Positions 36,725-58,115 of a DNA stretch of 64,000 nt are shown piece after piece. Position 1 is the first letter of the stretch; every line of letters begins with the position of its first letter. Source of the stretch: Candidatus Woesearchaeota archaeon (lineage in GTDB: Archaea; Nanobdellota; Nanobdellia; Woesearchaeales; 0-14-0-80-44-23). The notes beneath the pieces were generated by a model. That model was given only the letters and a program-made list of their open reading frames with translations, made no database searches and was not told the origin of the DNA. A program made the position numbers and the translations under genes. Location: positions 383,097-447,096 of the forward strand of contig JAVZCZ010000001.1 in assembly GCA_038874135.1 (NCBI GenBank), given 5' to 3'.

Positions 36725-37381
36725 TTATCTAAGATTAACTGGCCCATATATCGCGTGCTTCTTTCCAAGTTTTGCTGCCCGGTACGCGTCTCCATAGCTC
36801 CAGTGCCACCATTCTAAAGGGTAGTTCACGAAGCCCTCCGCCTGCATGCAATTCTTTAGAATCTGCCTGTTCTTGCGAGCAGTTTTACTTATTGCTCTTG
36901 AATCTAACGCGGATTTTGCTGTAAAGCTGTCCAATTCTGTGCCCATCTCAAGTTCTCTCCCTTTTGAATCTGCAAGAGTAACATCTACCGCTCCGCCCGT
37001 AGAGTGAAAGGTTATCTTGTCCGGATTTGCTATGTACATGTCAGTTATTCTAAGAAGTTTTTTCTCACTCCAATTCGGATGCTTCTTTCTCAGCTTTCTC
37101 AGAAGGTTATCATGCATCCTTCTCTGCGCTTCAATACTTCTGTAACCATCCAACACTACAAGCTTTATTCCTTCTGGAAGCATCTTGGCAACTCTACAAA
37201 GCTTTTTTGCAACACTAACCCGCACATAGCATTCGTCCCTCTTAAAGTTTTGAAGCATCCTACTCTCAGGATCTATCCTTATCAATATGTGTGGGCAGAC
37301 GCTCTTTAGAGCCACCAGCTTTTCACCATTATCTACAATCTTAATTCTGGCAAGTTTTTCATCAGGAATAAATCTTATCAC
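36725..37381 (-). CDS. D-alanyl-D-alanine dipeptidase-like protein (VanX/DdpX, peptidase M15D)
   Basis: LVVLDGYRS.EAQ, HSTGGAVDVTL, and YPLEWWHWSYGD blocks. GTG start. Confidence 0.75.
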   Translation of the reverse strand: MIRFIPDEKLARIKIVDNGEKLVALKSVCPHILIRIDPESRMLQNFKRDECYVRVSVAKKLCRVAKMLPEGIKLVVLDGYRSIEAQRRMHDNLLRKLRKKHPNWSEKKLLRITDMYIANPDKITFHSTGGAVDVTLADSKGRELEMGTELDSFTAKSALDSRAISKTARKNRQILKNCMQAEGFVNYPLEWWHWSYGDAYRAAKLGKKHAIYGPVNLR

Positions 37382-37543: not shown

Positions 37544-38089
37544 TCACTTCATGTATGGCGGAGTGGTTAGAAGGAGAATTGCGAACATTGAAACTATAAG
37601 TATGAAGATTATGCCGAGCACCTTAGGATGAAATATTGCCTGAGCAACATTCTTTCCGTAGTCTGTGGCTTCTACAGAAGTTGTGTTTTGTGTTAAAGGC
37701 AAAAGCTTGTTGCCAAACACGGCAGCCAGTCCAACTGCAAAGATGAGGCACACAACAACTAAGAGGGCGATGTGCACTGGTCCCCAATGTTTCATCCCCT
37801 CTTTTATTGCTCCCTCTTCCATGCCTAAAAATCTGAGTCCTACCAGCATGAAGAATATGAAGAGCAGGAGAATAAAGAATAGGGGCATTATTGTTTTTAT
37901 TACATCCTGCGACTCGCTGGAGAGTATTACTAGAAAAGCAACTGCCATTGCAATCATAGCAATAAGATTGTTGCTATCTCCGAGAACTTTTGTGGTTTTT
38001 AGTATTGCATACACTAAGGTAAACACTAGTAGAAGTATGAAGATTGGAGAAAACTTGTCCAGAAAGAATATTTCTAAAAATGTTGCCAT
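37544..38089 (-). CDS. polytopic membrane protein, tandem paralog 3 of 3
   Basis: The N-terminus MATFLEIFFLDKFSPIFILLLVFTLVYAILKTTKVLG aligns with the two upstream genes. Confidence 0.6.
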   Translation of the reverse strand: MATFLEIFFLDKFSPIFILLLVFTLVYAILKTTKVLGDSNNLIAMIAMAVAFLVILSSESQDVIKTIMPLFFILLLFIFFMLVGLRFLGMEEGAIKEGMKHWGPVHIALLVVVCLIFAVGLAAVFGNKLLPLTQNTTSVEATDYGKNVAQAIFHPKVLGIIFILIVSMFAILLLTTPPYMK

Positions 38090-38108
38090 ATTCGCTGCGC
38101 CTTTTTAT

Positions 38109-38696
38109 TTATTTGTTATAGTGCTCAAATGATTTTCCAATGTCGTCCCACATCTTTTTGAAAGCGCTGTCCCCCTGAGGCTTTCCCGGCTCTGCAGTTA
38201 TCGCCCAAACTATCACTCCAAATACTAAAAGTGCTACCACTACTGCCACTGTCTCAGGATTGGCTGCCACTGCCGAAAACGCCCTTGAACCAAACCAGCC
38301 AGCTGCTGAGCCGAATATGATTATTATTGCTGCCAGCGAGAATATTACTATGGCTCCTCTCATACTGCTGCCCTCTCCAGTGTAGCGTATGCCCCAAGCC
38401 CCTATGAGCAGGAGAACCATTATAACTGCCACGATGATTGCAGTAACATTGGGTATTGCTTCATTTATTATTTCCACAACATCCGCTCCTGGAGGATAGC
38501 CGCCTGTAACGTGAGGTATTACTACTGTTAATGCGAGCACGAGGGATACTACCACATTAATGTTTTTTCTATCCTTTCCAAAAAGGTTTATGTTGCTCAG
38601 AACTGCAAAAAGTATTGCAAATATAAGGGTGAATGGCAGAAGCACATCCATAAGACCCATGCTTTCAAACGCGATTAACACTTCTTTAAAATCCAT
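38109..38696 (-). CDS. polytopic membrane protein, tandem paralog 2 of 3
   Basis: MDFKEVLIAFESMGLMDVLLPFTLIFAILFAVLSNINLFG..., followed by four or five hydrophobic spans. Confidence 0.6.
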   Translation of the reverse strand: MDFKEVLIAFESMGLMDVLLPFTLIFAILFAVLSNINLFGKDRKNINVVVSLVLALTVVIPHVTGGYPPGADVVEIINEAIPNVTAIIVAVIMVLLLIGAWGIRYTGEGSSMRGAIVIFSLAAIIIIFGSAAGWFGSRAFSAVAANPETVAVVVALLVFGVIVWAITAEPGKPQGDSAFKKMWDDIGKSFEHYNK

Positions 38697-38702
38697 TTTT
38701 CA

Positions 38703-39278
38703 TCACCCTTCTTTTTTTGGACTTGAAGTTATAAATGCTATTGCTCCTATCATGAGGCCCAGCAGCACTATTGTGCCTACAACGTCATTATTTACGCCTG
38801 AACTGCCAACTAGTGCGTTGCGTATTCCTGTGAAGATTATTGAAAGCACGCTCTGCCCTGAGGAGAGCTTAAATGCATTTAGGAATATCAGCACTATGCC
38901 TACAAACATTATAACCATAAATAGGTTCTTCCAGCCGCCTTCCAGGAAGACTCCTTCACTCGTTTGCTTTTGAAATGAGCCGACAAGAATTAGGAAGAGC
39001 ACTGAAAGCACTAGCAGAAGCACTGAGTTGGAGACTGTCTCGTTTATCATTGCAACTAGGCGAGTAGAGCCCACCACTAAGAGAGAAGTTACGAATGCTA
39101 CCATGGAGTTGAGGTTTTTTCTGCTGTACTTCTTTCCTCCAATCTCTTCGTATCCTAAGACAAGCGTCTTTTCTAATATGCCAAACACTAAGGTGAAAAC
39201 TAGAAGCATTGGAAGGATAACATCATAAACTCCGAGTTGGTCAAGAAAGCTTATGGTTTCTCTCAAGTTGGATGCCAT
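38703..39278 (-). CDS. polytopic membrane protein, tandem paralog 1 of 3
   Basis: MASNLRETISFLDQLGVYDVILPMLLVFTLVFGILEKTLVLG..., with the same layout as the two downstream genes. Confidence 0.6.
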   Translation of the reverse strand: MASNLRETISFLDQLGVYDVILPMLLVFTLVFGILEKTLVLGYEEIGGKKYSRKNLNSMVAFVTSLLVVGSTRLVAMINETVSNSVLLLVLSVLFLILVGSFQKQTSEGVFLEGGWKNLFMVIMFVGIVLIFLNAFKLSSGQSVLSIIFTGIRNALVGSSGVNNDVVGTIVLLGLMIGAIAFITSSPKKEG

Positions 39279-42999: not shown

Positions 43000-43485
43000 T
43001 TACTTAACATACTCCCTAGTCCAGTTTATAACAACATCCCGTGGTCCCATCTTATAGATTGTGAACCTAATGTTTGCAACCATCTTCTTACCAAGGGCTT
43101 TTTGGATTAGGTAGAATAGCCCAGTTCTTTCAGATAGATCTATAGCCTGCATTGAAGCAGAACATAATTTAATACTTAAGCAGTGAGCATCTTCTTCTTT
43201 CAACTTGAGGCAGAGCTGGTTTCCCGAGCCCTCACTGCCGTCCTCATCTGCCACATAGAGCTTTTCAACGCTGAATGGCAGTATATAATTTTTTGAAATC
43301 TTATCATATGAGCCGCCCAGGCAGACCCTGCTCACTGAAAGCTCTAAGTCTTCAAAGTTTTCAAAAGCCTGATTCTTCTCCTGCTGTGCAAGGTATCTTG
43401 AAAAGAAGGTGTATGCTCCTCCAAACAGGAGTCCTCCAAGAAGTAATCCGGCTACTATCCACATCCAAATTTCAACTGACTCCAT
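43000..43485 (-). CDS. N-terminally anchored small protein, last gene of the pilin-like block
   Basis: N-terminal TM IWMWIVAGLLLGGLLFGGAYTFF, then a Cys-containing globular part. It lies 1 nt downstream of the preceding gene. Confidence 0.5.
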   Translation of the reverse strand: MESVEIWMWIVAGLLLGGLLFGGAYTFFSRYLAQQEKNQAFENFEDLELSVSRVCLGGSYDKISKNYILPFSVEKLYVADEDGSEGSGNQLCLKLKEEDAHCLSIKLCSASMQAIDLSERTGLFYLIQKALGKKMVANIRFTIYKMGPRDVVINWTREYVK

Positions 43486-43486
43486 T

Positions 43487-43924
43487 TCACTCTATCCTAA
43501 CCAATTTTTTCTGGTAATCGTAAGAGATTATCGCCTTGTTGCTGGAGTCAAATGTTATTTGAAAGTTCGTCATGCCTGCCTTTGTTAACGAATCGCTAAT
43601 CTGCTCCTTTCTGACTGAGCTGCAGTCCGCGGTTATAATGTAGCATATCGGCTCATTGCCTTGTTGAAGGCGGCCTTGCTTTCCGTTTTCGTTACAGAGA
43701 CGGGCGTGCTTCACAATCTCACTTAGGAATTCGCTGCATGTAACATTTATTTTTTGTATGTCCCCTACTGGCTGTTCTGAACCGCATTCACCTGTTAGTC
43801 TGCAGATGAACTTCTGCGCACTTAGGCTGTTCTTCGCAATTATGCCGATTACTACGAAGACGGTTATTGTTGCCAGAAATATCAAAAAAGCGTATTGTAT
43901 GGTCATATCTGCTCTTCTTTTCAT
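43487..43924 (-). CDS. pilin-like protein (class III signal-like N-terminus), Cys-containing
   Basis: MKRRA|DMTIQYAFLIFLATITVFVVIGIIA. The tail (...ICYIITADCS...AIISYDYQKKLVRIE) resembles the C-terminal module of the large paralogs. Confidence 0.5.
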   Translation of the reverse strand: MKRRADMTIQYAFLIFLATITVFVVIGIIAKNSLSAQKFICRLTGECGSEQPVGDIQKINVTCSEFLSEIVKHARLCNENGKQGRLQQGNEPICYIITADCSSVRKEQISDSLTKAGMTNFQITFDSSNKAIISYDYQKKLVRIE

Positions 43925-43926
43925 TA

Positions 43927-44337
43927 TTACACCCTGCTGAAAACATCTAGCAGTTCTCTTAACATTGGAAGTATGAAGAAGTAGATTACTGCTCCCGTTA
44001 TTATTAGAGCTATTAAAATCAGTCCATATTTTAAGAGCGGATTCAGCTGCTCATTCTTTTCAACTAACTCTTCCTTAGGCTTTTCAAGTTCTATTTTCAC
44101 TGTTACTTCACTTTTTTTCTCCTGAGGCTCTTCAACCTTTTCCTGCTCTCTCTTTTCTTTGAGCGAATTTTCCTGTCTCAACTTTATTGTTATATCATCT
44201 TGGGATAGTTTTTGAGCGTTTCCAAAATGGTCAATCTCGTATATTCTGGACAGTGCTGACTCTTTTGAGAACTCATACGCTTCACGAAGTGTTTCAAATT
44301 CCCTTCTGCCCTTTTCACTGGATACCACATATGTCAT
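43927..44337 (-). CDS. tail-anchored E/K-rich protein, hypothetical
   Basis: Soluble N-terminus, a charged repeat region, and a single C-terminal TM YGLILIALIITGAVIYFFIL. Confidence 0.45.
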   Translation of the reverse strand: MTYVVSSEKGRREFETLREAYEFSKESALSRIYEIDHFGNAQKLSQDDITIKLRQENSLKEKREQEKVEEPQEKKSEVTVKIELEKPKEELVEKNEQLNPLLKYGLILIALIITGAVIYFFILPMLRELLDVFSRV

Positions 44338-44338
44338 T

Positions 44339-46456
44339 CTAGGTCACTACAACCTGGCGTTTAGTTGAATCGTATTCAACAAGTATGTTTGTATTTGTAT
44401 TTATATCTTTTGTGAAATTTATGTTGTCCGAATCTCCGCAGCCGTACTCCGAATCTCCAATTATGTGACACCATTGTCTATCCATCAGAATTTTTGCAAT
44501 GTCCCTCTCAGTTACTGCCCTTATGAAGTTATATTCTCGCGGCACTCCCAGTTCTGAGCAGAAGAAACTTGTTTTCTCCTGCCCGTATCTTGACTTGCGC
44601 CAGCAGTCTGCAATTGCTGAAACTATCTCCTCTTTAACAGGATACTTCGTATAGCTGAGTTTAAGATCGTCTGCTATCAGCTGAGTTGGGCCTGCTGTGC
44701 TAATCTTAAATGTAAATGTACAGTAGTCAGATGAACAGCTTTTTTCAAGCTCTTTAATTTCATCTGTCAAAGAAACTGTTTTTGACTCAGCATTTAAGTT
44801 TGTAGCTGTCATTACATCTTTACCTTCAATAGACAAGGTTACCCCTTCTGCTTTTATGTCGTAGACGATTTTTAGGTGGCTAATGCTAATTGTGCCGTCC
44901 CTTCCAGAGGACACTTCTAAAGGTATTATGCAGTTGCCTTCCTCATCTGGAGAGCATTCTGAGAGAGCTCTCTGCAGGGAATTTACAAAACCCTGCCCTG
45001 AAACCTTCCACGGAGAATTCACATTGTTTAGCTCGTCTTGGCGGTAGGCAAATTGTACTCCTGAAATGGAAAGCCCTATCTGGTTTGGATAGTTTGAGAT
45101 AACCATCTGCTTAACTGCCTCTGCTAATGCTGCCTCATCCCTAAATCCAAAGATTTTCCCCCCTGTAGAGGAAGCCAGCCTTTTCATCATACTAATTATC
45201 TGCCTACAATTGTTAATCACAACCTCGTTACAGTTTGGCGCTTGAACATTTATGCAGCTATAGGGATGTGAAGGACAGCATCCATCATAACAGCCTGGCC
45301 CGCTTCCTATGCTGAAGCCTTCTGGAGTGGTGCTGTCATCGTCTCCATAAACAACATTAACAAATATATTGTTCTGCTGAGCCTTCTGTATTGCCCTGTC
45401 GATTACTTCTTCCTCGTTTCCACTCATAGATACTGGCGTGGGGTATTTAGGAGGCGCATCATTAGAGCAGGGGCTGAATACAACTGATTGATAAACAGCC
45501 CCGTTGGGGTCCGAGTCGCTTATGAGGATTTCAATCCTCTTCGCATCTGAGAGCCAAGCATCTTCACCTTCTATCTGCGAGGATAGATAGTAAGATGCTA
45601 CACCCCAAGCTTCAGACGGCTGGTCTAAACCTATAGTTGAGTATGAACAACCAGCTGAAGAAAAGGAAAATTGGCATGTATTCATTGGAAGGCCTGTTTC
45701 TCTGAGTTGGTCGTATGTTATTTTCAGGTTCTTCGCTGGAATGGGACAGTTTTTTGCCACATTGGTTTTTCCGCACGGGTCTCCAACGCCGATTGCGTAG
45801 ACTCTAACTCTGTACTCTTCTATGTGCATTGCTGACAAGATTTTTGAAATATTACTTACTATTGAGCATACTGCACTCCACTCGTTAGTCATGCTTCCTG
45901 AAATGTCTATTGCAAAAGCGATATCGGTCTTTGTTGGATAGTTGCTTCCGTAAAGCTCTATGGAAGCATTTTTTATTATTGCATATTTTGGAATTTTTAT
46001 TAAGGCCGTGTTGGTTCCCCCTCTCAATGGATAGGGTGGCAGAGTAATGTTTGTTTCTCCAGAAGCAAAGGTTCTGAGCACAATGTTGTGAGGGGCCCCT
46101 ATAACTATTGAAGCGTTTTGAAGAATTGCATCCCTGTCCACTGTTATCTGAAAGGTCCGTTCAAGACGAGAATTACTGAATCCTAAGATTTTAGTGCTGC
46201 TCCCGTCTGAAAACTCAGATGATATAATCTGTTCTGCCTTTATGATTTTGACATCGTGAGGCCCAACGCCTGCGCAGAAGCTGTCCATTCGCGTGTTGTA
46301 AAAACGGGGAACATACTTGTGTGCAAGTTTGCAGTAGAACTCCTTACCGCTCCTCATCTGAGCTCCAAGGGAAAGCATAAGGGCTATTGCAAGAATGGTT
46401 ATCACTATTGAGAATACTACATTTATTGCAAGCTCACCTCTTTTTTTTACAGACAT
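44339..46456 (-). CDS. large pilin-like protein with von Willebrand factor A domain (paralog A, 705 aa)
   Basis: Class III-like MSVKKRG|ELAINVVFSIVITILAIAL. MIDAS motif DIAFAIDISGSMT (vWA roughly nt 45107-45928). Shared motifs CSPDEEGNCIIPLEV and a C-terminal 4-Cys module. Confidence 0.65.
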   Translation of the reverse strand: MSVKKRGELAINVVFSIVITILAIALMLSLGAQMRSGKEFYCKLAHKYVPRFYNTRMDSFCAGVGPHDVKIIKAEQIISSEFSDGSSTKILGFSNSRLERTFQITVDRDAILQNASIVIGAPHNIVLRTFASGETNITLPPYPLRGGTNTALIKIPKYAIIKNASIELYGSNYPTKTDIAFAIDISGSMTNEWSAVCSIVSNISKILSAMHIEEYRVRVYAIGVGDPCGKTNVAKNCPIPAKNLKITYDQLRETGLPMNTCQFSFSSAGCSYSTIGLDQPSEAWGVASYYLSSQIEGEDAWLSDAKRIEILISDSDPNGAVYQSVVFSPCSNDAPPKYPTPVSMSGNEEEVIDRAIQKAQQNNIFVNVVYGDDDSTTPEGFSIGSGPGCYDGCCPSHPYSCINVQAPNCNEVVINNCRQIISMMKRLASSTGGKIFGFRDEAALAEAVKQMVISNYPNQIGLSISGVQFAYRQDELNNVNSPWKVSGQGFVNSLQRALSECSPDEEGNCIIPLEVSSGRDGTISISHLKIVYDIKAEGVTLSIEGKDVMTATNLNAESKTVSLTDEIKELEKSCSSDYCTFTFKISTAGPTQLIADDLKLSYTKYPVKEEIVSAIADCWRKSRYGQEKTSFFCSELGVPREYNFIRAVTERDIAKILMDRQWCHIIGDSEYGCGDSDNINFTKDINTNTNILVEYDSTKRQVVVT

Positions 46457-46461
46457 GTCAA

Positions 46462-48654
46462 TCAGCTCACAATTATTGCTCCTTCCTTTTCAGAGTATTC
46501 TATAAGTACATTTCTTCCCGGAATTATTTTCTGAATTCTCCATTTTAACTGGTCGTACCTTCCGCAGTTAAAATCTGAGTTTCCAAGTGTTTCGCAAAGC
46601 CCATTTTCTTTTAAAATTTTCGTGATTTTGTCTTCATCTACATCTTCAACATAGGTGCAAGTTGAAGGTATAGTGATCTCATAGCAGAGCAGGTCTGAGT
46701 TGCGCTCTCCAAATCTTGCTTTTTCCCAGCAAGCAAGCGAGTATGCTGCAATAACTTCAGAAACGCTGCACTGCCCATATTCTATTTCAATTCCTGAGAG
46801 CACAATCTCTCCAGCGTCCTGTGAAGCTGCTGAGATTGTTACTTCGCATTTGTCCTTTTTGCAATTAGCTGCCTGTGAAACCTGTTTGGTTATGTCCAAC
46901 TGTATTGCTGGAGCATATGGCTTCATCACTTCAAAGTTTCCCACATCTACTCCAAAGACGTTTATTAGCACTCCTCTTATAGGAAGTTGGTAGTTTATAC
47001 TTAGATTTTCAATTGAGATTATTGGCTCAGAATTGAATATCATAGCGCTTATCTTCAGGGGAATTATGCAATTTCCATCCTGATCTGGAATGCACCTTCT
47101 CAGCCAGGAGTTCAATTTTTCAGAACTAATATGTGCTGTCCTGCCACTTTTGAATGAGCCGCTGCTCTGCCAGTCTGGCTGTGCCGAATTGCACGAATAA
47201 AATTTTATCCATGAAGATTTTTTCAAGCGAGAAATTATGGCGTTAATCATGAAGTTTGTATCTCCAAACTCCGATCCGAGCTGTTCTTCAATATTTGGAG
47301 CGATGTAAATCACGCTGCCATTGCCGTATGAGAACTCTATAACTGCCTGTCCAGGTCTTCCATAGTTTCGGTCTGCACATTTTAACTTAAGGTCCTTGTC
47401 AAGAGGAGATGGATTAGTTGAGTTGTAAACGAGGTCCGCAAGGACTTTTACCTTGGAGTTTGAATAGTTTACCTCAACGCAAGGAGTGTTATCATATATC
47501 ACAGAGTACTGCTTGTTTGAGCTTACTCCGTATTGCGCTTCTGCCTGTGCGGAGAATGTTATTCTTTGGCTCTCTCCACACCTGCCTCCAAAACCTACAG
47601 TTTCCCTGCACGGAACTATTGATTTATCATTGCAATTTTTTGGAATTGTTGCGTTGCACTCAGTTTTGTAATCTGCCTCATCAGGACTATTGCCTTTTGA
47701 AGGAATAAGTTGGTCTTGCTTCTTAGCCTGTAAAAGCCCCGGGCAGTTCTGGTATGGAGTTATTCTTTTGAAGTATGGCGTGATTTCTTTTTCAGGAAGT
47801 TGAGATTCGCTGAAGAGTTCAACTAGAAGGTTTATTGCCCAGCCGGTTACCATCAGCGTGTTTCCTTCTGCTATCCAATCCTTTAAGTATTCCCTGTCAG
47901 CACTATTTCCGATGGTTGTATTAAGCCCGCTTCCCACTATGAGCACAGAATGTTTTGCGAGTGTCTCTTTCCAGTTTGGGTCTCCCTTCCAGCACTTACT
48001 CTCATCATATGAGATGAGATAATAGTAGAGATATTTTCTCACATCATCAAAAATTCCGGAGCCGTACTGCTGGCCGCACTTGTTTGAGTAGCCCGTGAAG
48101 ACAAGCACTTCTGAACTTTCACCTTCCTGTTTAGAGTAGAAGTCAAAAGAAGCGTTAAGAACGTGGGCGTCCTTGGGAAGTTTCAGAAATAGAGTTTGCT
48201 CAGCTTCTTTTGAGAAGTCCAAAACTTTTGATGTGCTTCCATCGCTCAGAGTATTAACCCTTCCGAGAGAATATCCGAATATTGAAATCTTTGCTCTAGT
48301 TATGTTTGTAGCTGGGACTAGAATGTGAGCGGTAGCAGTTAAGCCAGGGCCTACACTTAAAACTTTTCTTTCAGAACCATCTGAGAAGCTTCTAAGGATC
48401 ACCTTTTCCATTTTGATTGTGCTGTTTTGCAAGCTATCATCTTGTGAGCAATATGCTTCTTCAGCTGTTCCGGAACTGAGCGAGAACATCACTTTTAAGG
48501 GCGAAAGTATACTGCAGTAAACGGAGCGGGATAAATACGGAAACTTTGAAAAGATTAACAGGAGAAAAATTGAAACTGCAATTATTCCTACAAATAGTGT
48601 AAATGCAAGAGTTATTGAAAACTCTCCTTTCCTGCTCATTAGTTTTAGCTTCAT
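46462..48654 (-). CDS. large pilin-like protein (paralog B, 730 aa)
   Basis: MKLKLMSRKG|EFSITLAFTLFVGIIAV. Repeated FSDGS...LNAS modules, CIPDQDGNCIIPLKI, and the C-terminal module ACWEKARFGE...CGRYDQLKW...VLIEY. Confidence 0.6.
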   Translation of the reverse strand: MKLKLMSRKGEFSITLAFTLFVGIIAVSIFLLLIFSKFPYLSRSVYCSILSPLKVMFSLSSGTAEEAYCSQDDSLQNSTIKMEKVILRSFSDGSERKVLSVGPGLTATAHILVPATNITRAKISIFGYSLGRVNTLSDGSTSKVLDFSKEAEQTLFLKLPKDAHVLNASFDFYSKQEGESSEVLVFTGYSNKCGQQYGSGIFDDVRKYLYYYLISYDESKCWKGDPNWKETLAKHSVLIVGSGLNTTIGNSADREYLKDWIAEGNTLMVTGWAINLLVELFSESQLPEKEITPYFKRITPYQNCPGLLQAKKQDQLIPSKGNSPDEADYKTECNATIPKNCNDKSIVPCRETVGFGGRCGESQRITFSAQAEAQYGVSSNKQYSVIYDNTPCVEVNYSNSKVKVLADLVYNSTNPSPLDKDLKLKCADRNYGRPGQAVIEFSYGNGSVIYIAPNIEEQLGSEFGDTNFMINAIISRLKKSSWIKFYSCNSAQPDWQSSGSFKSGRTAHISSEKLNSWLRRCIPDQDGNCIIPLKISAMIFNSEPIISIENLSINYQLPIRGVLINVFGVDVGNFEVMKPYAPAIQLDITKQVSQAANCKKDKCEVTISAASQDAGEIVLSGIEIEYGQCSVSEVIAAYSLACWEKARFGERNSDLLCYEITIPSTCTYVEDVDEDKITKILKENGLCETLGNSDFNCGRYDQLKWRIQKIIPGRNVLIEYSEKEGAIIVS

Positions 48655-48655
48655 T

Positions 48656-49531
48656 TTAACTTATTCTTATCTTCTTTGAGTTGTTTAAAAACTCTATCAG
48701 GATTGAGCCCTGCGGATGTATTGAAGTTAAATTCCATTCTATGTCATCTGAATCACCACACTCGTAGTCCAAGTTAGAGATTGCCCCGCATAAACCGTTA
48801 TCACGGAGATATTTAGTAAGCGTTGACTCATTTATGTTAAGCGGCGGACAGTTCCTTATCAGGATTGCCGCGCACGGAATATTTTCAGAGTAGCTTCCGA
48901 AGTTTGCGCTCTCCCAACAAGAGATTGTTGAGGCAGCAATTGCTTCAAGGAGGGGGCAATCCTTATAAGTTAGGGAGAGATCTTTAATCCAAACCTTGCC
49001 ACTGCTCCTTACACTTACATTTAAAATGCACGGGTACGCCTTGCATTTTGAGGAGCATTCTGCTAAATTTTTAACAAGTGAACCAGGGCTAGTATAATAT
49101 TTTGAGGGAACTGCTCCTTCTATCTGCCAGTCAGCATTTTTAGAACCGCATATGTAAAATTCTGCACTTCCAGACTCTGCCCTTGCTGAAAAGGAAAACC
49201 CGGTGAGGGTAGAATTTATTGGCAGGATGAAGTAGAAGGTGCTTTCACCATTAGAAGTAAAAGTTGTTGAATTGTCCGCAAACCTCTTAACAAAAATCCT
49301 GCTAGGTTTTACTTCAATGAAGTGCAGCATTGAAAATTCCCTGCAATAATCGGAACTTTGCCTTATTCCAGAGGGGAGGAATGATGCAGAAGCCACATAA
49401 AAAAATGTTTTGCAGTAAACCTGTTTTGCAAATACGGGCATCTGAAATGAAAAGAAGGATATGAGCAACACGATTGCTAAAACTGCTGTCAATCCGCCAA
49501 AGATTGCACTTATAGTAATTTCAGCCCTCAT
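48656..49531 (-). CDS. pilin-like protein (paralog C, short form)
   Basis: Start set to the ATG at 49531, preceded by GAGGAGG and forming an ATGA overlap with the upstream stop. MRA|EITISAIFGGLTAVLAIVLL, and the same C-terminal module SCWESANFGS...CGDSDDIEW...ILIEF. Confidence 0.6.
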   Translation of the reverse strand: MRAEITISAIFGGLTAVLAIVLLISFFSFQMPVFAKQVYCKTFFYVASASFLPSGIRQSSDYCREFSMLHFIEVKPSRIFVKRFADNSTTFTSNGESTFYFILPINSTLTGFSFSARAESGSAEFYICGSKNADWQIEGAVPSKYYTSPGSLVKNLAECSSKCKAYPCILNVSVRSSGKVWIKDLSLTYKDCPLLEAIAASTISCWESANFGSYSENIPCAAILIRNCPPLNINESTLTKYLRDNGLCGAISNLDYECGDSDDIEWNLTSIHPQGSILIEFLNNSKKIRIS

Positions 49532-49878
49532 TCCATCCTCCTCACAAGGCACTTTGAGGAGCTGCTGTAGATCTTAAGAGTGTAGCTTCCAGGTGCCAAA
49601 CTGTGAAATCCCTGAAACTCAAAATTGGAAGAGCTGTTAAGAACCCCTTCAGTTATCTCTGCCGTTATAAGGAAGCAGTCCCTCTCTGCAGGACCCCTGC
49701 ACAATTCGCAAAGACGGCTTATCTTGTGGTATAGTTGGCTGGCACTTCCCGAGAAGTTTTGAAGTTCGTCCTCTCGCGTTGGCTTTGCACCTATCACTTT
49801 GAAAGCAAAAGCCATAAGCAGGCCCATCACTGCTACTGCCACTACTAGAATTCCAACCTTCAGGTAAGTATCTTCCAT
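49528..49878 (-). CDS. small N-terminally anchored protein, Cys-containing
   Basis: MEDTYLKVGILVVAVAVMGLLMAFAF, then CELCRGPAERDCFLITAE. AT-rich TATA-like sequence lies upstream. Confidence 0.5.
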   Translation of the reverse strand: MEDTYLKVGILVVAVAVMGLLMAFAFKVIGAKPTREDELQNFSGSASQLYHKISRLCELCRGPAERDCFLITAEITEGVLNSSSNFEFQGFHSLAPGSYTLKIYSSSSKCLVRRME

Positions 49879-49942
49879 AATGCCTTATTTGCCCTTTCAA
49901 TTTAAATTTATTTCTCAAATTTTGATGCTGGAAGCATTCGTG

Positions 49943-52078
49943 CTAGCCAGTGGCTGAAATTCCTGAAGCCACCAGCATTTTTAGGAAAGTTGAACCTATC
50001 ACGGTTACGAATACGTAGACTATAATTGCAATAAGCACATTCTTGGCTATCTCCGCATCTCTGGATATCTCATCAAAGCCGTTCTCAACGCCGTTTGCAA
50101 GCTGCGATAATAGGAACACTGCTTCTATGGTGTAGATGCCTACTAACACCTGAAATATTGGCGGGGGAGTCACCCGTGTGAAGTTTATAAATTCAGTAAA
50201 AAATCCAGTATCCTGAGAGCCCAATGCGCTGCCTGCTAGCTTCTGCATTACGAGTTCCAATCTTCCCAACATGTCATAAAGGGATTTAATAATTACAAGG
50301 GTCAATGAGCCTACGATTCCTGCTATGAACGGTGCTAGGAACTTTGCCTGCATCCTTACTGAGGTGACTGTCTCTTCCAACAAGTCGTATATGAGCTCTT
50401 TTATCTTCTTCACATTGTCAAGGTAGACTGCAATCTTCTGCATTATATTGTATATAACCTGAGAGCCCTTCCTGGCGCTTTCAGTAAATATCCACATTAT
50501 CTCTTTTAAGAGGGTGGACGGGTACTCTTTTATTATGCCCTCTTGAGGGTGAAAGACTGCCTGTCCAAATGTCAGCCCGAGTGTCCGCATCTTTTCAAGA
50601 ATCCTATTAAAAAGGTGAAATATCTGCCTCTTTTTTAAGTTCATAACCTGATAATTGTTTACGAAGTTTTCAACTGCGATCTCAACCGGAATATTCTCTG
50701 TAAACTGGTTTGCTATGCTATACAGAGAGGCGTTTAAATCTTCTTCAATTTCAATTATCTCGTCCCTAAGCTTTATCTTCTGAACGCTCCTTCCATAATA
50801 GAAGAGAAATATGCCAACAGCAATTCCAACGGGTATTGTCAAGGTCATAAACATAACGCTCGACTCGTATTCGTGAGCCAGGGCTGGAGGAGGCGAAGCG
50901 TTTGCCGGAAGCTTGCTGGCTTCCAGGAATACGGGAATTGTAGCAGTGAAAAGGTGAAAAAGCCCCGGGCTCATTATCAAGAGTGCAGCTAAAATGGCAA
51001 CTGGGAGGACTGGAACAAGGTAAGACTTCTTTCTAACCAGCAGTCGGTATTTTCCCTTCGGAGGAAGATTAGGATTTCCAGAGATGTCTGGTGCTGAGAA
51101 AGCTCCTGGCCTCTTTGCAAGTATCCTGTTGGAAAAGAAGTATATCAGGGAGGGCAGTATTACGATGTAGCCGAAAAAGAGGTAGGATATTTTAATACTT
51201 GAAGACATGAATACGCTTATGATTGGAAAAGCAATAAGTCCTATGAGTGGTAGCATTAAGCCGAAGGTGTTTATTATCATTATCGGATTCTTCAAGTCGT
51301 GAGCGTAGTATTTCATCTTTTCATAAGTGTCCTGGAGTAGAGTGGAAAGGGCCTTATCAAGTATTGCAGATTGGTGTTCCTTGTCCGGCTGGGTGGTTAC
51401 GCTTAGAAGTATCATAAACGACTTTACAAAGTCGGGATTCCTCTTGAGCCAGAGCTCCATATAAAGTTTGAAGCCGTCGTGAATTGAGGATATCTTTCCA
51501 CCATCTAAAAGCCAGAGTATTCTCTTGAAGTCTCTGCCGAGTGGTCCATTAAGATGCTCTGTGGCAAAGGCTATTGCGTTTTCCAGCACCGGATTCACGC
51601 GCATGTAAATTGTTATATAGAGGAGAGCTAGTAGTGATTCCTGTTGGGCTCTTATCTTGGTAATCTGACTTGAGAATGCTGGGTATGTGTAAGCTATATA
51701 AGCTAAGAACATTCCCGTGAAGATAAAGAAGAATGCCAAGTCAATCCAGCCCAGAATTATTAGAGGAAGTGCTGACATAATGCCGAGGAGCACTGTTAGG
51801 ATTGCAGCTGCTAGCACCTGCTTAGGTCTTATGTGGAGCCTTGCAATTTGGATATCCTCATACATTTCCGGTTGAGATTCATCTTTTACATCTATAAAAG
51901 AAAGAAGTTTTCCTGCAAAATCAGCATATTTTTCAAAAAAAGTGGGAAGTGCAGCCTCCTCTTGCTCTTCCCGAGCAAATGAGGAAAATTGACTGGAAAC
52001 AAATTCCGACTGCTGCCCCTGCCCGGAAGCCAGCCTCTTTTTAACTTCTGCTTCTATCTCTTCAATGCTTTTAGGCAT
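49943..52078 (-). CDS. FlaJ/TadC-like (T2SS-F family) platform protein, paralog 2, with no adjacent ATPase
   Basis: Aligns by eye with the 30778 ORF (FATEHLNGPLGRDFKRILWLLDGGKISSIHDGF vs FASEHLAPPLSIDIKKILWNVESGKYPSVKESL) and has the same TM/cytoplasmic-domain alternation. Confidence 0.6.
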   Translation of the reverse strand: MPKSIEEIEAEVKKRLASGQGQQSEFVSSQFSSFAREEQEEAALPTFFEKYADFAGKLLSFIDVKDESQPEMYEDIQIARLHIRPKQVLAAAILTVLLGIMSALPLIILGWIDLAFFFIFTGMFLAYIAYTYPAFSSQITKIRAQQESLLALLYITIYMRVNPVLENAIAFATEHLNGPLGRDFKRILWLLDGGKISSIHDGFKLYMELWLKRNPDFVKSFMILLSVTTQPDKEHQSAILDKALSTLLQDTYEKMKYYAHDLKNPIMIINTFGLMLPLIGLIAFPIISVFMSSSIKISYLFFGYIVILPSLIYFFSNRILAKRPGAFSAPDISGNPNLPPKGKYRLLVRKKSYLVPVLPVAILAALLIMSPGLFHLFTATIPVFLEASKLPANASPPPALAHEYESSVMFMTLTIPVGIAVGIFLFYYGRSVQKIKLRDEIIEIEEDLNASLYSIANQFTENIPVEIAVENFVNNYQVMNLKKRQIFHLFNRILEKMRTLGLTFGQAVFHPQEGIIKEYPSTLLKEIMWIFTESARKGSQVIYNIMQKIAVYLDNVKKIKELIYDLLEETVTSVRMQAKFLAPFIAGIVGSLTLVIIKSLYDMLGRLELVMQKLAGSALGSQDTGFFTEFINFTRVTPPPIFQVLVGIYTIEAVFLLSQLANGVENGFDEISRDAEIAKNVLIAIIVYVFVTVIGSTFLKMLVASGISATG

Positions 52079-52096
52079 AATACACCACTATGTTTT

Positions 52097-53899
52097 TCAA
52101 GATACTGAAGGTTGATCTGGGGGAGGTGGAGGTGGGTTAGGCGGATTGTATGGAGGACTTGGTGGCTCGGGTGTAGGATTTGGCTCGTCCTTGTTATGAA
52201 CAAGTATTCCTTCAGCATAGAAGTCATTCACGCTTTCTATGCGTTTGAGATTGTAGGTTCTTATTTTTGTAGGGCTGCACTCTAATGAGATTACCCTTTT
52301 CAAAATAATGTTTTTCCCATCAAAACTGAATGCATAATCCCCTCTTTCAAGAGGTAATACTTTGAGATTTGGCGTCTCCCCTTTTGAATTCTCAGGAGAG
52401 ATTGAAGCCCAGCCCTTTAGAGTGTATATTGGATGCTCGTCAGTAAGTCTTAAAAATGAGCCGTCTTCAAAGGATACGGTGCAAAGGTGGTCCCTATATG
52501 GAGATTCAAGCTCCAGCACCCTTGCTGGAACATGCTTTCCAGTTTTAAAATCATAGCCGAGCACCAGCTCTCCAACTCTGACATCTTCAATATTTTTTAA
52601 GCTTCCATCAGCCATTCTTATTCTAGTTCCAGCAGGAAAACAGGAGGAAGGCGTATCACCTGTTGGCTCACAATGTTCTGGGCAGTCGCATTCGGGCTCT
52701 GGCGGGTTCGTAGTTCTGGTGAGGAATACGTGCACTAAAAGGTTGAACCTCAAATTTTCAAAACCGCTTTCAGAGATGGGATGCTGATACTTTGTGTCAG
52801 TACAGGTTATATTCATTATAAAGTCTATATTGTGCCTCTCTCCATAACCGTAGGGGGAGAATGGGCAGGTTATCAGAGTGTTAGGTTCAAGCTGTGTTCC
52901 GAAAGGAATCTCAACTTGGGGCTGCTCTGGAGGGCTTGGGATGTTCTGAGGATTTTCACATTTTCCGTCAGATTTTTGCCCGCTCAAACAGTTCTGCTTA
53001 AGATCTGGATAAGGGCATCCTGAAGCTGGCCAGATAACTCCGCATCCTGCCGGGCAGTTTATAGCTGCGCTGCACAATATTTCGGTTTTTGCATAAAGGC
53101 ATGGAAGAGTGTAGGTACACTTTACATATGAATCAAATGAGTCTTGAAGATGCTTCAATGACGAATCTGCTATTTGTTTAACATATTCCTCATTTATAAC
53201 ATATGCTGGACATGCACTTGTTCCAACTCCGTAATAAGTCATAAGTTTATCACAGCTATATTGCGATACGATGTTCTGCCTAGCCCATTCCTCAATCTTC
53301 CTGTAAAGGTACCAGTAGCGCAGGGGATAAGCATATGACTTGAACGCATTCTGCTCCTGAACCTCTTCTCCAGAATCAACTTCCTTAACAACTGCTGGAA
53401 TTGTACCCCTTCCCTCAGCCAAGAAGCCTTCATCTGCGCCTGCGGAACCGTCCATCTCATAAAGGTCTGTATCTGAAACGAGTATTTCAATAGATGATAT
53501 GTCACCCGCATCTTCAATCTTAAATTTTCCAAGATCCTCTCCACGTATTGAAGCAAGATACTGGTTAGTGTAGATGATTGCAAACCGGCTAAGATTACTC
53601 TTTGCTTCCCAAAGTTTAGGCGGGATTGAAGAGGAGTAGCTTATCCAGTATGAGTTCTGAGCACCTGCTCCAGAGCTTGCGCTGTCATAGGATGCACGTA
53701 TAAGAGCGTCTCTGAAAGAGTGAAAGGAGTAAGTTCTCAGAATTTCAGAGTAGCTGTTCAGCTGAGATTTCTGCTCTTGAGAAGTTGTAAATTCAACTAC
53801 AGCCTTCCTATTCTGAAGATATACCAGGTAGAATATCAGAATTACAAGTGCCACGAAAAAGAGCAGCATAAATGTTGATGCGCGCCTATTGAACTTCAT
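52097..53899 (-). CDS. pilin-like protein with Cys-rich middle, C-terminal Hint domain and poly-Pro tail
   Basis: Start set to the ATG at 53899, preceded by GAGGTGA (the track starts at a TTG at 53920). MKFNRRA|STFMLLFFVALVILIF. Hint blocks as listed in the next feature. Confidence 0.65.
   Translation of the reverse strand: MKFNRRASTFMLLFFVALVILIFYLVYLQNRKAVVEFTTSQEQKSQLNSYSEILRTYSFHSFRDALIRASYDSASSGAGAQNSYWISYSSSIPPKLWEAKSNLSRFAIIYTNQYLASIRGEDLGKFKIEDAGDISSIEILVSDTDLYEMDGSAGADEGFLAEGRGTIPAVVKEVDSGEEVQEQNAFKSYAYPLRYWYLYRKIEEWARQNIVSQYSCDKLMTYYGVGTSACPAYVINEEYVKQIADSSLKHLQDSFDSYVKCTYTLPCLYAKTEILCSAAINCPAGCGVIWPASGCPYPDLKQNCLSGQKSDGKCENPQNIPSPPEQPQVEIPFGTQLEPNTLITCPFSPYGYGERHNIDFIMNITCTDTKYQHPISESGFENLRFNLLVHVFLTRTTNPPEPECDCPEHCEPTGDTPSSCFPAGTRIRMADGSLKNIEDVRVGELVLGYDFKTGKHVPARVLELESPYRDHLCTVSFEDGSFLRLTDEHPIYTLKGWASISPENSKGETPNLKVLPLERGDYAFSFDGKNIILKRVISLECSPTKIRTYNLKRIESVNDFYAEGILVHNKDEPNPTPEPPSPPYNPPNPPPPPPDQPSVS
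52193..52642 (-). other. Hint (Hedgehog/intein-like) autoprocessing domain within the 52097 ORF
   Basis: Starts CFPAGTRIRMADGSLKNIEDVRVGELVLG, has the block-B-like RLTDEHPIYT, and ends FYAEGILVHN followed by K. The next 31 residues are Pro-rich up to the stop. Confidence 0.65.
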
Positions 53900-53909
53900 A
53901 AAAATCACC

Positions 53910-54428
53910 TCAGCCTGCAATCACAAGCAGTGCACCCCTCTCGTAGCTTCCCGAAGAGCAGGGTCTTGGAAATCTGAAATCATAGGATACATATTCAGTG
54001 AATTCTGGAGTACCAGATTCGGAGATTAAAGAGGAGGTGAGAAAAAGCGGTTTAGAGCCCTGGCTGTCTGATTTTAGGATTAGAGCCCAAGCATTTTTCC
54101 CGTATGTGGAGTCAAGCATTGCTCGTAAAGATTGAATTATGTTTATCTGTCCATTCCCGTAGTTTGCAGTTTCCACTCCGTAACAGGAATAAACACCCAA
54201 AAGTTCTTCTATTGGGATTCCCAAAGAGTTTCCTGCTGCATCCTTGGCGGTTATGTATGGAAATGAAAATCCTGTGGAGGCAACTCCTGATACGCGCATA
54301 TCTCTAAGTATTGCTTCTGCCCTGTTAAGAACAGATGCAGAGGTCTGCATCCTCACAAAGATTGCAATCAGAACTATTGTTGCCACAAGAACTATTATGC
54401 CTACGAACTCTGAGGACTGCGCCCGCAT
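53910..54428 (-). CDS. small pilin-like protein
   Basis: MRAQSSEFVGIIVLVATIVLIAIFV: a short charged leader followed by a hydrophobic helix, as in archaeal type IV pilins. Confidence 0.55.
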   Translation of the reverse strand: MRAQSSEFVGIIVLVATIVLIAIFVRMQTSASVLNRAEAILRDMRVSGVASTGFSFPYITAKDAAGNSLGIPIEELLGVYSCYGVETANYGNGQINIIQSLRAMLDSTYGKNAWALILKSDSQGSKPLFLTSSLISESGTPEFTEYVSYDFRFPRPCSSGSYERGALLVIAG

Positions 54429-54477
54429 ATCAACCCCTTTTTTGTGAATTAAATTCTCTTTCGCATATTTAAAGTTT

Positions 54478-55212
54478 TCAGTATTTTACTCTTACTGAAT
54501 TTGAACTTTCATTATAAGAGATTAGCACAAGAGATTTTCCTTTGGGAATTGTGAAGTTTCCAACACTGCATTCAAACCTAGGAAAGAAAAGGTATTCCCC
54601 AACATAGAAAGTGTTTGTAAAGTTATCATACCTTATGTTATAGTCTGAAATAAGAATGTGCTGCATCCCCTCATGGCTCCTGCAAGCCTGTTTTATCTTG
54701 CCATAAAATGAGGGGATGCTGCCGATGTAAGCGGTAATGGATGCAAATCCGGGATTTATAGTTGGCACCTCCGAAGGGTATCTTATAGCGATAGGAAGTG
54801 CTATTGTTAAAGTATCCTCTGCAAACTGCGGCTCATTCAAAAGGCCTATGCGCCACTCCTTCCCCGTAAGACTATCTACAACTCTGAATGTGTAGAGAAA
54901 GTCATACTGCTCTACGCAGGATATGTCCTCGTTACCCCTGTTGTAGTAGTCCAGCTTTTGCTGGTATAATACCGCCTGAGACGCAGTGGTCCAGCTTCCC
55001 TCTTTCTCCTTATATGCGAAACAATCGCTGGCAATCATCGCCTTGAGAAATGAGGTTGCAAGAGCATAATATTCAGATGTAAACTTGGCTTTCTGAGAAG
55101 AGGTTCTACTTCCTAGCAAGGTCATTATTACAAACATTAAAAAAATAACCGTGAATATGGCGAATATTGACTTTATCGTAAGATCCTCAGAGCCCTTTTG
55201 TGAAATCCTCAT
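54478..55212 (-). CDS. pilin-like protein
   Basis: MRISQKG|SEDLTIKSIFAIFTVIFLMFVIMTLL. Its start forms a 4-nt ATGA overlap with the stop of the upstream gene (55209 ORF). Confidence 0.5.
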   Translation of the reverse strand: MRISQKGSEDLTIKSIFAIFTVIFLMFVIMTLLGSRTSSQKAKFTSEYYALATSFLKAMIASDCFAYKEKEGSWTTASQAVLYQQKLDYYNRGNEDISCVEQYDFLYTFRVVDSLTGKEWRIGLLNEPQFAEDTLTIALPIAIRYPSEVPTINPGFASITAYIGSIPSFYGKIKQACRSHEGMQHILISDYNIRYDNFTNTFYVGEYLFFPRFECSVGNFTIPKGKSLVLISYNESSNSVRVKY

Positions 55213-55982
55213 CTTTCACCATTCACCTTCGCTCTTATTATCAAAAAAGCCAACACTAAAATTATACAAATTGCTACTAACGCAGCAATGAGCAGCTTGG
55301 AAGAGTTATCCTCTCTTTTCTGAATAGTTTTAATACAATCGGGATCTTTGTTTGGAGCGCAGTCAGGATCACAGATGCCGTCCTTAACCATATCGCAATA
55401 GCCGTCCCTGCTTCCAGATTTGCAGTCCTGCGGACAGCTAAGATATGTTTCAGTAGGATCGCAGACTGAGTTACCACAGCCTGAAGGGGATATGTTGATA
55501 GGGTTGGTTTCAGTTGGAGTGCTTGTGCTGCAATCTGCTGGACAGCTTATTTCACTTTCATATTTCTCACAAATGCCGTTTACTCGGCAAAAATTAGAAG
55601 TTTTAAAAGAAAAAATTTCTACACCTGATTTAAAGATTTTTATAGTGTCCGCATTGGCAAAAAAAGGAACTTTTAGTTCAATCAGAGTATTATTTGAGCT
55701 GATAGATACTGGCGGATCACTCATTATATTAAAACTAACAAAAAAGGGAAGTGAATATAACTCTTTATCTTCAGAATACACTTTTAGGTAATATTTTGTA
55801 GGAGAGTCTGTTGGAATCGTTTTATACCCTTCAAGCACTTTAGCATATGTTAAGTTTATTTCTCCAGTATTCCAGAATAAAATCTGCATGTCGTAGATTT
55901 TTTCATATGCCAGAGTCATATCTATTGAAATAAGTAGAAATAACAAAACTGTTGCACTTATTATGAGATTTTTCATTTTCAT
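55209..55982 (-). CDS. secreted Cys-rich protein with C-terminal TM anchor
   Basis: Start set to the ATG at 55982 (TGATG overlap with the upstream stop). Sec-type signal MKMKNLIISATVLLFLLISIDMTLA, then CGNSVCDP...CPQDC...DGICDPDCAPNKDPDC, and a C-terminal anchor. Confidence 0.55.
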   Translation of the reverse strand: MKMKNLIISATVLLFLLISIDMTLAYEKIYDMQILFWNTGEINLTYAKVLEGYKTIPTDSPTKYYLKVYSEDKELYSLPFFVSFNIMSDPPVSISSNNTLIELKVPFFANADTIKIFKSGVEIFSFKTSNFCRVNGICEKYESEISCPADCSTSTPTETNPINISPSGCGNSVCDPTETYLSCPQDCKSGSRDGYCDMVKDGICDPDCAPNKDPDCIKTIQKREDNSSKLLIAALVAICIILVLAFLIIRAKVNGER

Positions 55983-58033: not shown

Positions 58034-58115
58034 CTCTTTTTAAATCCCGTATTTAGAAAAAGATATTTATAAATCCTTCTTTATTGTAAGATTAAATGGA
58101 ATGAAAAATAAGAAA

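Follow-up and report, generated by a model that had tools for sequence, protein, structure and literature searches.

Three adjacent paralogs of a Woesearchaeota archaeon as candidate modular pilin-like subunits with domains inserted at one site of a small cysteine-rich protein

The stretch of DNA analysed here (64,000 nt, referred to below as the window) belongs to a Candidatus Woesearchaeota archaeon, a member of the DPANN group, and the locus that concerns us is present in hot-spring metagenomes (DNA runs). It carries three adjacent genes on the reverse strand, designated paralogs A, B and C, and it raises the question of how three neighbouring proteins come to resemble each other at both ends while differing in what lies between, and of what such proteins might do. 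Contact with host cells is presumed to be a necessity for DPANN archaea, and to our knowledge the proteins that make this contact in the Woesearchaeota are almost unknown. The reading preferred in this work, to which we assign a rough probability of 0.6, is that the three proteins serve a DPANN type IV filament (TFF) as modular pilin-like subunits, whether minor pilins or tip adhesins. The three genes are the following.

44339 to 46456, reverse strand: paralog A, 705 amino acids (aa), pilin-like with a vWA-containing insert (A-type); based on the open reading frame (ORF), on paralogy and on a split match to the minimal-form profile described below.
46462 to 48654, reverse strand: paralog B, 730 aa, built on the same scaffold as A, with a centre of ~300 aa without assignment (B-type); based on the ORF, on paralogy and on a split profile match.
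48656 to 49531, reverse strand: paralog C, 291 aa, the scaffold with a single beta-sandwich insert (C-type).

The spacing between the C, B and A genes is 1-5 nt. Gene C starts at an ATG at 49531 which shares the letters ATGA with the upstream stop and has a GGAGG 6-10 nt upstream, and the orthologs of A are 46-56% identical to it. The similarity between the three products lies far above chance, and they are significant paralogs: in BLASTP comparisons, A and B are 28% identical over their C-terminal 218 aa (E 4e-29) and match again over their N-terminal 239 aa (E 4e-10), B matches C at E 3e-22, and A matches C at E 3e-13. A recent tandem duplication was considered as the source of the trio and rejected, because the proteins are only 22-32% identical to each other and the order of the three genes is kept in a relative at ~50% identity. 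A preliminary description of this DNA, made by reading the sequence without database searches, had placed three adjacent paralogs at these positions and had allowed for the possibility that their resemblance is statistically insignificant. The BLASTP values dispose of that possibility, as does a profile hidden Markov model (HMM) of the C-terminal module, built from the C-terminal 108 residues of 14 orthologous and paralogous sequences, which matches A, B and C alone among the 612 ORFs of the window (E 1e-40 to 1e-45).

The module shared by A, B and C is ~105 aa long, and its four cysteines are invariant in all 14 of these sequences, together with one W, two G, two E, one Y and one L; across 141 modules of the wider family introduced below, the four cysteines are conserved in 100%, 100%, 96% and 96%. 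The conserved, disulfide-rich character that the preliminary description had ascribed to the module, and the invariance of the four cysteines, thus hold up well beyond the three proteins in which they had been noticed. An additional pair of cysteines is found in the modules of the B and C families, both members being absent from A; 35 of the 141 modules have both members of this optional pair, 99 have neither and 7 are discordant, and this co-occurrence is as a disulfide predicts. A further pair, which the preliminary description had missed, lies just past the N-terminal helix and is nearly invariant (99% and 98% family-wide). The alignment of A with B also confirms that the two large paralogs have the motif 'C.PD..GNCIIPL' in common.

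The architecture of the large proteins becomes clear when they are compared with the smallest proteins that contain the module. When the module HMM was run exhaustively against 1.84 billion representative proteins at a threshold of E <= 1e-3, a family of 162 representatives (87 of them at E <= 1e-10) emerged, with length classes of ~175-200, ~280-315 and ~620-770 aa. The family is unannotated: none of Pfam, NCBIfam and PHROGs has a model for it and solved structures do not cover it, so that the module belongs to no known Pfam or NCBIfam family. In the minimal form, of ~180 aa, a start of the type 'MKKG/IALETI...' (here and below a slash marks the end of the presumed leader) is followed by a hydrophobic helix of ~25 aa, then by 'K..YC', ~20 residues and 'YC', and then directly by the module; six cysteines never vary among the minimal forms that were aligned (30 of 30). 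When a profile of 186 positions is built from 54 minimal forms, its match to each of A, B and C falls into two parts, one on either side of the insert: an N-terminal piece at positions 1-76 and a C-terminal piece at ~55-186. In 58 longer members the break occurs at profile position ~76/77, the inserts having ~110-125, ~210-270 or ~410-590 residues. Because the profile splits at this same position in 58 members, it follows that each large protein is a minimal protein which has taken up domains at a single permissive site.

This result changes the picture drawn in the preliminary description, in which a conserved pilin anchor and a conserved cap carried exchangeable cargo. Judged by the profile, anchor and cap are two halves of one ancestral protein of ~180 aa, and the module is the globular C-terminal half of that minimal protein instead of an add-on. 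The centres of the paralogs do differ, as had been noted, and yet the term 'cargo-swapping' was an overstatement: on the evidence of the alignments there are few insert classes (A-, B- and C-type), each of them old and conserved, with A-type centres in ~27 representatives and B-type centres in ~9, and the C-B-A order is kept at ~50% identity. The segments into which the three proteins can be divided, all on the reverse strand, are listed below with a fourth, small ORF of the same locus.

46241 to 46456, reverse strand: A residues 1-72, class-III-like leader MSVKKRG/ELAI, hydrophobic helix and 'YC...FC' loop, corresponding to the N-half of the minimal protein.
45941 to 46240, reverse strand: A residues 73-172, two beta units of ~48 aa (FSDGS...NAS); from hhalign comparison of family sub-alignments, and the pre-centre HMMs of A and B cross-match.
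45047 to 45940, reverse strand: A residues 173-470, predicted vWA domain, integrin-betaI-like, with Cys-rich insertions; from sub-threshold Pfam VWA matches and from the profile against the PDB.
45893 to 45907, reverse strand: DISGS, A residues 184-188, DxSxS motif of the metal-ion-dependent adhesion site (MIDAS).
44666 to 45046, reverse strand: A residues 471-597, beta domains including 'CSPDEEGNCIIPLEVSS'; from the A-B alignment, cross-matches of the post-centre HMMs and the B model, in which the corresponding part is confidently predicted as beta structure.
44342 to 44665, reverse strand: A residues 598-705, C-terminal alpha/beta module with four invariant Cys, corresponding to the C-half of the minimal protein.
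47215 to 48126, reverse strand: B residues 177-480, central domain, modelled at a predicted local distance difference test (pLDDT) score <50, with no PDB or Pfam match, conserved in ~9 representatives.
46465 to 46788, reverse strand: B residues 623-730, C-terminal module with four invariant Cys and the optional co-varying pair, pLDDT 85-91.
48983 to 49327, reverse strand: C residues 69-183, beta-sandwich insert; AlphaFold strands 70-191 at pLDDT ~80-89.
48659 to 48982, reverse strand: C residues 184-291, C-terminal module.
43487 to 43924, reverse strand: 145-aa ORF, divergent member of the minimal form, from the minimal-form HMM; orthologs in the related loci L001 and L006.

The preliminary description had seen a weaker version of the module in the 145-aa ORF, and this cannot be substantiated either by BLASTP against C (E 7) or by the module HMM (E 1.6, then 0.057, both non-significant). 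The full-length minimal-form profile, on the other hand, matches the ORF at E 9e-6, and the ORF keeps both cysteines of the N-terminal part and the first four cysteine positions of the module while lacking the last Cys pair, so that by sequence it is placed in the family as a distant and divergent member. Matches to tau which appeared in the PDB searches were rejected as chance matches between the module motif 'CGxxDxI(x)W' and the microtubule-binding repeats of tau ('KCGSKDNIKH'), and two giant multi-stretch outliers of the exhaustive search (P0045 and P0120) are probably chance matches of the same kind.

The simplest of the inserts is that of C. A beta unit of ~48 aa with the pattern 'FSDGS...P.xN(A/S)(S/T)' occurs twice in A, twice in B and once in C, and the repetition of this unit across the paralogs, which had been proposed from inspection of the sequences, is sustained at the level of family profiles, where hhalign gives E-values of 1e-6 to 1e-5 (2e-6 for the first against the second unit of B, 1e-6 for the second unit of B against that of C, and 1e-5 for the first unit of A against the second of B). 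The AlphaFold model of C (mean pLDDT 76.6) begins with an N-terminal helix (residues 2-30), continues with strands (70-191) and closes with the module (194-291, pLDDT 85-90). The insert of C accordingly consists of one beta-sandwich of ~115 aa, which contradicts the earlier statement that C has 'almost nothing' in its centre. The structure of the module itself, predicted within the models of C and B, is alpha/beta at pLDDT 85-91. A Foldseek search with the whole C model against the PDB and viral structures gave nothing at E <= 1e-3; its best weak matches are to BcsB, CBM6 and other jelly-rolls, and no function is based on them.

The end of every beta unit is formed by an N-x-S/T sequon, whose position in the alignment does not change ('P..A.I.NAS'): residues 114 and 163 of A, 117 and 167 of B and 113 of C. 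The position may be a conserved N-glycosylation site, or the Asn may be structural.

In the centre of A the preliminary description had identified a vWA domain with an intact MIDAS motif, and the family data bear this out. The DxSxS motif is found at ~175-187 in nearly all of the ~27 A-type representatives, and in an alignment of 18 diverse A-type centres the invariant residues are D13, S15, S17, M18, E21, W22, D107, E111, W113 and D143-S-D-P..G148. When the profile made from this alignment is compared with PDB sequences, the best match is the betaI domain of integrin beta6 (E 1.5e-4 over ~190 profile positions); 44 of the 46 PDB matches are of vWA type, and the next in order are vWA domains of anthrax toxin receptors and I domains of integrin alphaL. 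D107..E111 and D143-S-D145 of the A centre align with D-x-P-E and S-D-x-D of integrin beta6, the register of the Glu being off by one. Pfam VWA matches all five of five close A orthologs below its gathering score (best E 0.0026; 15.8 against 23.8 bits). On these sequence comparisons the A centre is accepted as a predicted vWA/MIDAS domain, most similar to integrin betaI.

For the centre of B there is considerably less to report. The AlphaFold model of B has an N-terminal helix at 9-37, and its residues 179-479 have pLDDT <50. Profiles of the B family and of the B centre gave 0 matches to PDB sequences, B has no Pfam match, and Foldseek of the B model, with its centre at pLDDT <50, returned nothing against the PDB at E <= 1e-3, only generic similarities. 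A faint resemblance to a class-I-glutamine-amidotransferase-like or ThuA-type fold had been suggested for this region. One of six B-type members matches Glyco_hydro_42M (E 0.016), and the C-terminal extension of another family member matches ABC_transp_aux (E 0.006); both of these we take to be families of the GATase1-like clan. For a GATase1/ThuA-like fold in the B centre these matches provide a weak hint.

The evidence that connects the family with type IV filaments comes from the N-termini and from the neighbouring genes. Archaeal class III signals are processed ahead of the H-domain, with G, A or S at position -1 and a charged residue at -2 (PMC4371748). The N-termini of A (KRG/ELAI), B (RKG/EFSI) and C (MRA/EITI) have this form. 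Of 159 N-termini in the family, 129 have [KR][GAS] immediately ahead of the H-domain, and the hydrophobic stretch lies at profile positions 6-29. The pilin-type N-terminus which the preliminary description had attributed to the three proteins can thus be specified as a predicted class III signal.

The genes stand in a tightly packed operon, most of whose products start with a [KR]-[GAS] leader and a hydrophobic helix (class-III-like). The operon and the other genes that bear on the function of the trio are as follows.

43000 to 58649, reverse strand: operon of 14 genes, coding for products of 177, 683, 260, 244, 172, 607, 711 and 116 aa, C, B, A, and products of 136, 145 and 161 aa.
49943 to 52078, reverse strand: 711-aa polytopic membrane protein with 8 predicted transmembrane (TM) segments, presumed TFF platform (FlaJ/TadC role).
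30778 to 32985, reverse strand: 735-aa polytopic membrane protein adjoining the ATPase, paralog of the platform protein.
32991 to 35327, reverse strand: secretion ATPase of FlaI/TadA type (Pfam T2SSE E 4e-15; NCBIfam FlaI E 2e-37, below the cutoff of the model).
55982 to 58033, reverse strand: 683-aa protein with class-III-like N-terminus RRG/ATLT, a long Cys-rich region and a C-terminal HExxH (THEMGHTFG).
52097 to 53920, reverse strand: 607-aa protein with class-III-like N-terminus, Hint domain at ~426-576 (Pfam Hint E 4.5e-7) and a Pro-rich tail.

The 711- and 735-aa proteins are 30% identical over their full length (E 5e-99); neither has a Pfam or NCBIfam match, and they are presumably divergent platform proteins of the FlaJ/TadC type. 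The 683-aa protein looks like a pilin-anchored metalloprotease, with weak metallopeptidase matches (Reprolysin_5 E 0.003; M6 domain E 0.004) and homologs in the related loci L006 (569 aa, with 44 Cys) and L004. The 607-aa protein has orthologs of 445 aa in L001 and 427 aa in L006, which can be aligned with no more than its first ~417 residues, and for this reason the Hint part appears to be a lineage-specific addition.

This set of genes recurs in distant archaeal loci. In the CG07_land Woesearchaeote the genes, C-B-A among them, all stand in the same order at ~50% identity, synteny of the operon is found in L001-L003, homologs occur in L006 and L004, and most of the small operon ORFs are common to distant archaeal loci; a search for related loci with the A family returned the CG07 Woesearchaeote only. 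The 711-aa platform-like protein has counterparts in L006 (53% identity) and L004 (31%), and it is also kept in L001. Locus L006 has A-type and C-type members which are not adjacent to each other, and no B-type member. Locus L004 has the minimal form only, located after a platform gene and one small ORF at ~5 kb from a T2SSE ATPase that is 50% identical to the ATPase of the window. In the same locus, a separate 445-aa protein (14224 to 15561, forward strand) has a class-III-like N-terminus (MYKG/QVSFF) and a clear Pfam VWA domain, of which hhalign matched to the A-centre profile only the 17-residue strand with DxSxS; it appears from these sequences that in L004 the vWA function sits on a different pilin-like protein.

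Many small pilin-like proteins of the operons in the window, L004 and L006 that are otherwise unrelated end in a similar hydrophobic-x-hydrophobic motif, 'hhIEY...x..hxVx', apparently a C-terminal beta-hairpin; examples are the 145-, 244- and 116-aa ORFs of the operon (43000 to 58649, reverse strand) and the 132-, 134- and 445-aa proteins of L004.

Because their N-termini fit the class III signal and their genes are linked to those of an ATPase and platform proteins, A, B and C are interpreted as pilin-like subunits of a type IV filament, in which they probably act as the adhesive subunits. The scheme we propose begins with an ancestral unit of ~180 aa consisting of a short basic leader ending in [KR]-[GAS], a helix of ~25 aa, an extracellular loop closed by a Cys pair and an alpha/beta head of ~105 aa held by two, sometimes three, further disulfides. 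Insertion at the one permissive site between loop and head has given C one beta-sandwich, and A and B beta-sandwiches together with a large centre. The proteins would be inserted into the membrane through the helix, their leaders would be removed by a class III signal peptidase, and the FlaI-type ATPase and the platform protein would then assemble them at low copy into the filament. Their most likely location would be the tip, because the inserts seem too bulky for the body of a filament and because of the analogy with bacterial modular pilins. The inserted domains, an adhesion domain with a MIDAS in A, the unassigned domain in B and nothing but a beta-sandwich in C, would bind ligands there; A could make a metal-dependent contact between its MIDAS-type site and an acidic residue of a protein ligand, and for this lineage the likely target would be a host cell or another surface.

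A number of observations weigh against this reading. A, B, C and the minimal forms match no described pilin family in Pfam, NCBIfam or PHROGs; no solved pilin or archaellin was found when profiles of the module, of the A and B families, of the B centre and of the minimal form were run against PDB sequences, nor was any pilin among the top 50 Foldseek matches of the C model, a search dominated by the beta-sandwich. In that model the region that links the helix to the rest has pLDDT <50. No major pilin was identified, no gene for a class III signal peptidase was recognised among the polytopic ORFs of the window, and the only sequencing runs in which the locus has been seen are DNA runs of hot-spring metagenomes. 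An ordinary signal anchor, moreover, would likewise begin with a basic N-terminus and a helix behind it. If the leader were such an uncleaved anchor, the three would be type II membrane-anchored Cys-rich adhesins with no link to a TFF, and their neighbourhood would be coincidental; the lack of a pilin family or fold match, the lack of a prepilin peptidase in the window and the distance of the ATPase, ~8 kb off the operon, all fit this explanation. It is nevertheless judged improbable, given that [KR]-[GAS] precedes the H-domain in the large majority of members, that the linkage with the platform paralog is kept in three loci at 31-76% identity, and that the solitary minimal form of L004 lies so near a platform gene and a T2SSE ATPase.

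Two further explanations were weighed. A, B and C might be class-III-processed surface proteins that display adhesion or binding domains at the membrane or on a short pseudopilus, in the manner of the Sulfolobus bindosome. The sequence and context evidence is the same for this explanation as for tip subunits of a filament; archaea do use class III signals for non-pilus proteins such as bindosome subunits (PMC4371748), the metalloprotease-like and Hint proteins of the operon share the type of N-terminus and together resemble a displayed toolkit, and the NCBIfam model of the bindosome ATPase weakly matches the ATPase of the window (E 4e-13). That ATPase, however, fits the FlaI and TadA models far better, the operon has more than eight small pilin-like genes, which is typical of the minor-pilin sets of true filaments, and pili-like appendages are carried by ultrasmall groundwater cells that are likely to be CPR (Candidate Phyla Radiation) or DPANN by size, and have been imaged on host-attached ultrasmall cells, although those cells were not identified as Woesearchaeota (PMC7906910). 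Display at the membrane is on balance unlikely, and among the alternatives it is the most probable. The metalloprotease-like (683-aa) and Hint (607-aa) proteins with their pilin-like N-termini, and the presence of two platform paralogs for one ATPase, could instead point to an apparatus for type-II-like secretion or effector delivery which exports or presents these two proteins, perhaps against a host, with A, B and C as pseudopilins or substrates. The invariance of the MIDAS-type residues of A in 18 representatives argues that A itself binds a ligand, and the absence of the Hint part from the L001 and L006 orthologs makes this part non-core; we regard a secretion apparatus as the least probable of the explanations considered.

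The interpretation as filament subunits can also be carried further than the evidence for the individual steps. On this tentative extension, which we consider possible and somewhat doubtful, the ~180-aa protein would be an undescribed pilin family, confined to DPANN, with a new disulfide-stapled head, and C, B and A would form a heteromeric tip complex for host contact in which the betaI-like MIDAS of A and the domain of B recognise the host. If the trio were such a complex, it would offer the first molecular handle on the attachment of Woesearchaeota to their partners.

The remainder of the window contains several other features. Two tandem genes for D-Ala-D-Ala-ligase-like ATP-grasp proteins (19538 to 21651, reverse strand) and a gene for a VanY/M15 D-Ala-D-Ala dipeptidase-like protein (36725 to 37381, reverse strand) represent enzymes of a cell-wall-peptide type that is unexpected in an archaeon. 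Three tandem small polytopic ORFs (37544 to 39278, reverse strand; 181, 195 and 191 aa, with 5-7 predicted TM segments) have no family match; in L001 the operon is followed by ORFs whose sizes are the same. The genes at 8611 to 9936 and 28439 to 29734, both on the reverse strand, encode respectively a protein with a lamin-tail domain (LTD) and one with a diadenylate cyclase (DAC) domain of the DisA type. A phage origin of the locus was rejected, in view of the lack of PHROGs matches, the housekeeping neighbours and the flat base composition.

The family is of interest for its principle of construction, in which a minimal disulfide-bonded pilin-like unit with one insertion site is combined with few, apparently old insert classes. 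A is a candidate adhesin whose integrin-like metal site is, from its sequence, predicted to be intact, and the conserved 14-gene operon provides a concrete target for studies of host attachment. The idea of the 'modular pilin' would moreover be extended from bacteria to archaea, and from C-terminal grafting to internal insertion, and it is the comparison with the bacterial proteins that brings this out most clearly. In Streptococcus sanguinis, PilB combines a pilin module with a vWA module and has been modelled at the pilus tip, and PilC combines a pilin module with a lectin module (PMC8179133). The likeness to A, B and C lies in a pilin-type leader and helix joined to a bulky module, in the presence of a vWA domain with a MIDAS in one of the paralogs, and in the side-by-side position of the genes in a pilus locus; in both cases a location at the tip is expected from the bulk of the modules. 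Modular pilins in the sense of Raynaud et al. 2021 are characterized by a pilin-type N-terminus with at least one module unrelated to the pilus, and this combination is present here (vWA in A, beta-sandwiches in A, B and C); they are also characterized by a module grafted C-terminally through a short linker, whereas in A, B and C the extra domains separate one half of the minimal protein from the other. The proteins described here differ further from PilB and PilC in that they are archaeal, in that the insertion is internal and at a fixed site, in that the vWA domain is most like integrin betaI, and in that the head has no detectable sequence or fold relation to the known pilin modules.

The remaining known systems share individual aspects of the architecture. 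The A centre resembles integrin betaI in that DxSxS followed by 'SM..E', a downstream D...E and an 'S-D-x-D' strand can be aligned, all of them invariant in the A centres; it differs in its large Cys-rich insertions and in a Pfam VWA score that stays below gathering, and the likeness is one of sequence alone. GspK, CofB and TcpB are minor pilins that are enlarged by extra domains, in GspK by one that interrupts the pilin fold, and that form or cap tip complexes with adjacently encoded minor pilins (PMC8179133); no homology of A, B and C to them was detected, and A, B and C have a small alpha/beta head with 2-3 disulfides and are three paralogs on one scaffold where those systems have unrelated minor pilins. 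With the archaeal Epd, Aap, Ups and PilA systems, according to the survey by Makarova et al. 2016 (PMC4858521), the locus shares a FlaI/PilB-type ATPase, a polytopic platform and many small class III proteins encoded in operons. Conserved cysteines with expected disulfides in some systems, and Cys-rich components more generally, are described in the archaeal type IV surveys (PMC4858521; 10.64898/2026.04.22.720090), the second of which, a 2026 preprint, also notes DPANN loci with two platform proteins. A search by terms of PMC4858521 and 10.64898/2026.04.22.720090 found no pilin with an inserted vWA domain or beta-sandwich. The present locus stands apart from the Epd, Aap, Ups and PilA systems in that its platform-like proteins match no Pfam or NCBIfam model and its pilin-like proteins, built by insertion into a minimal protein, fit no described pilin family.

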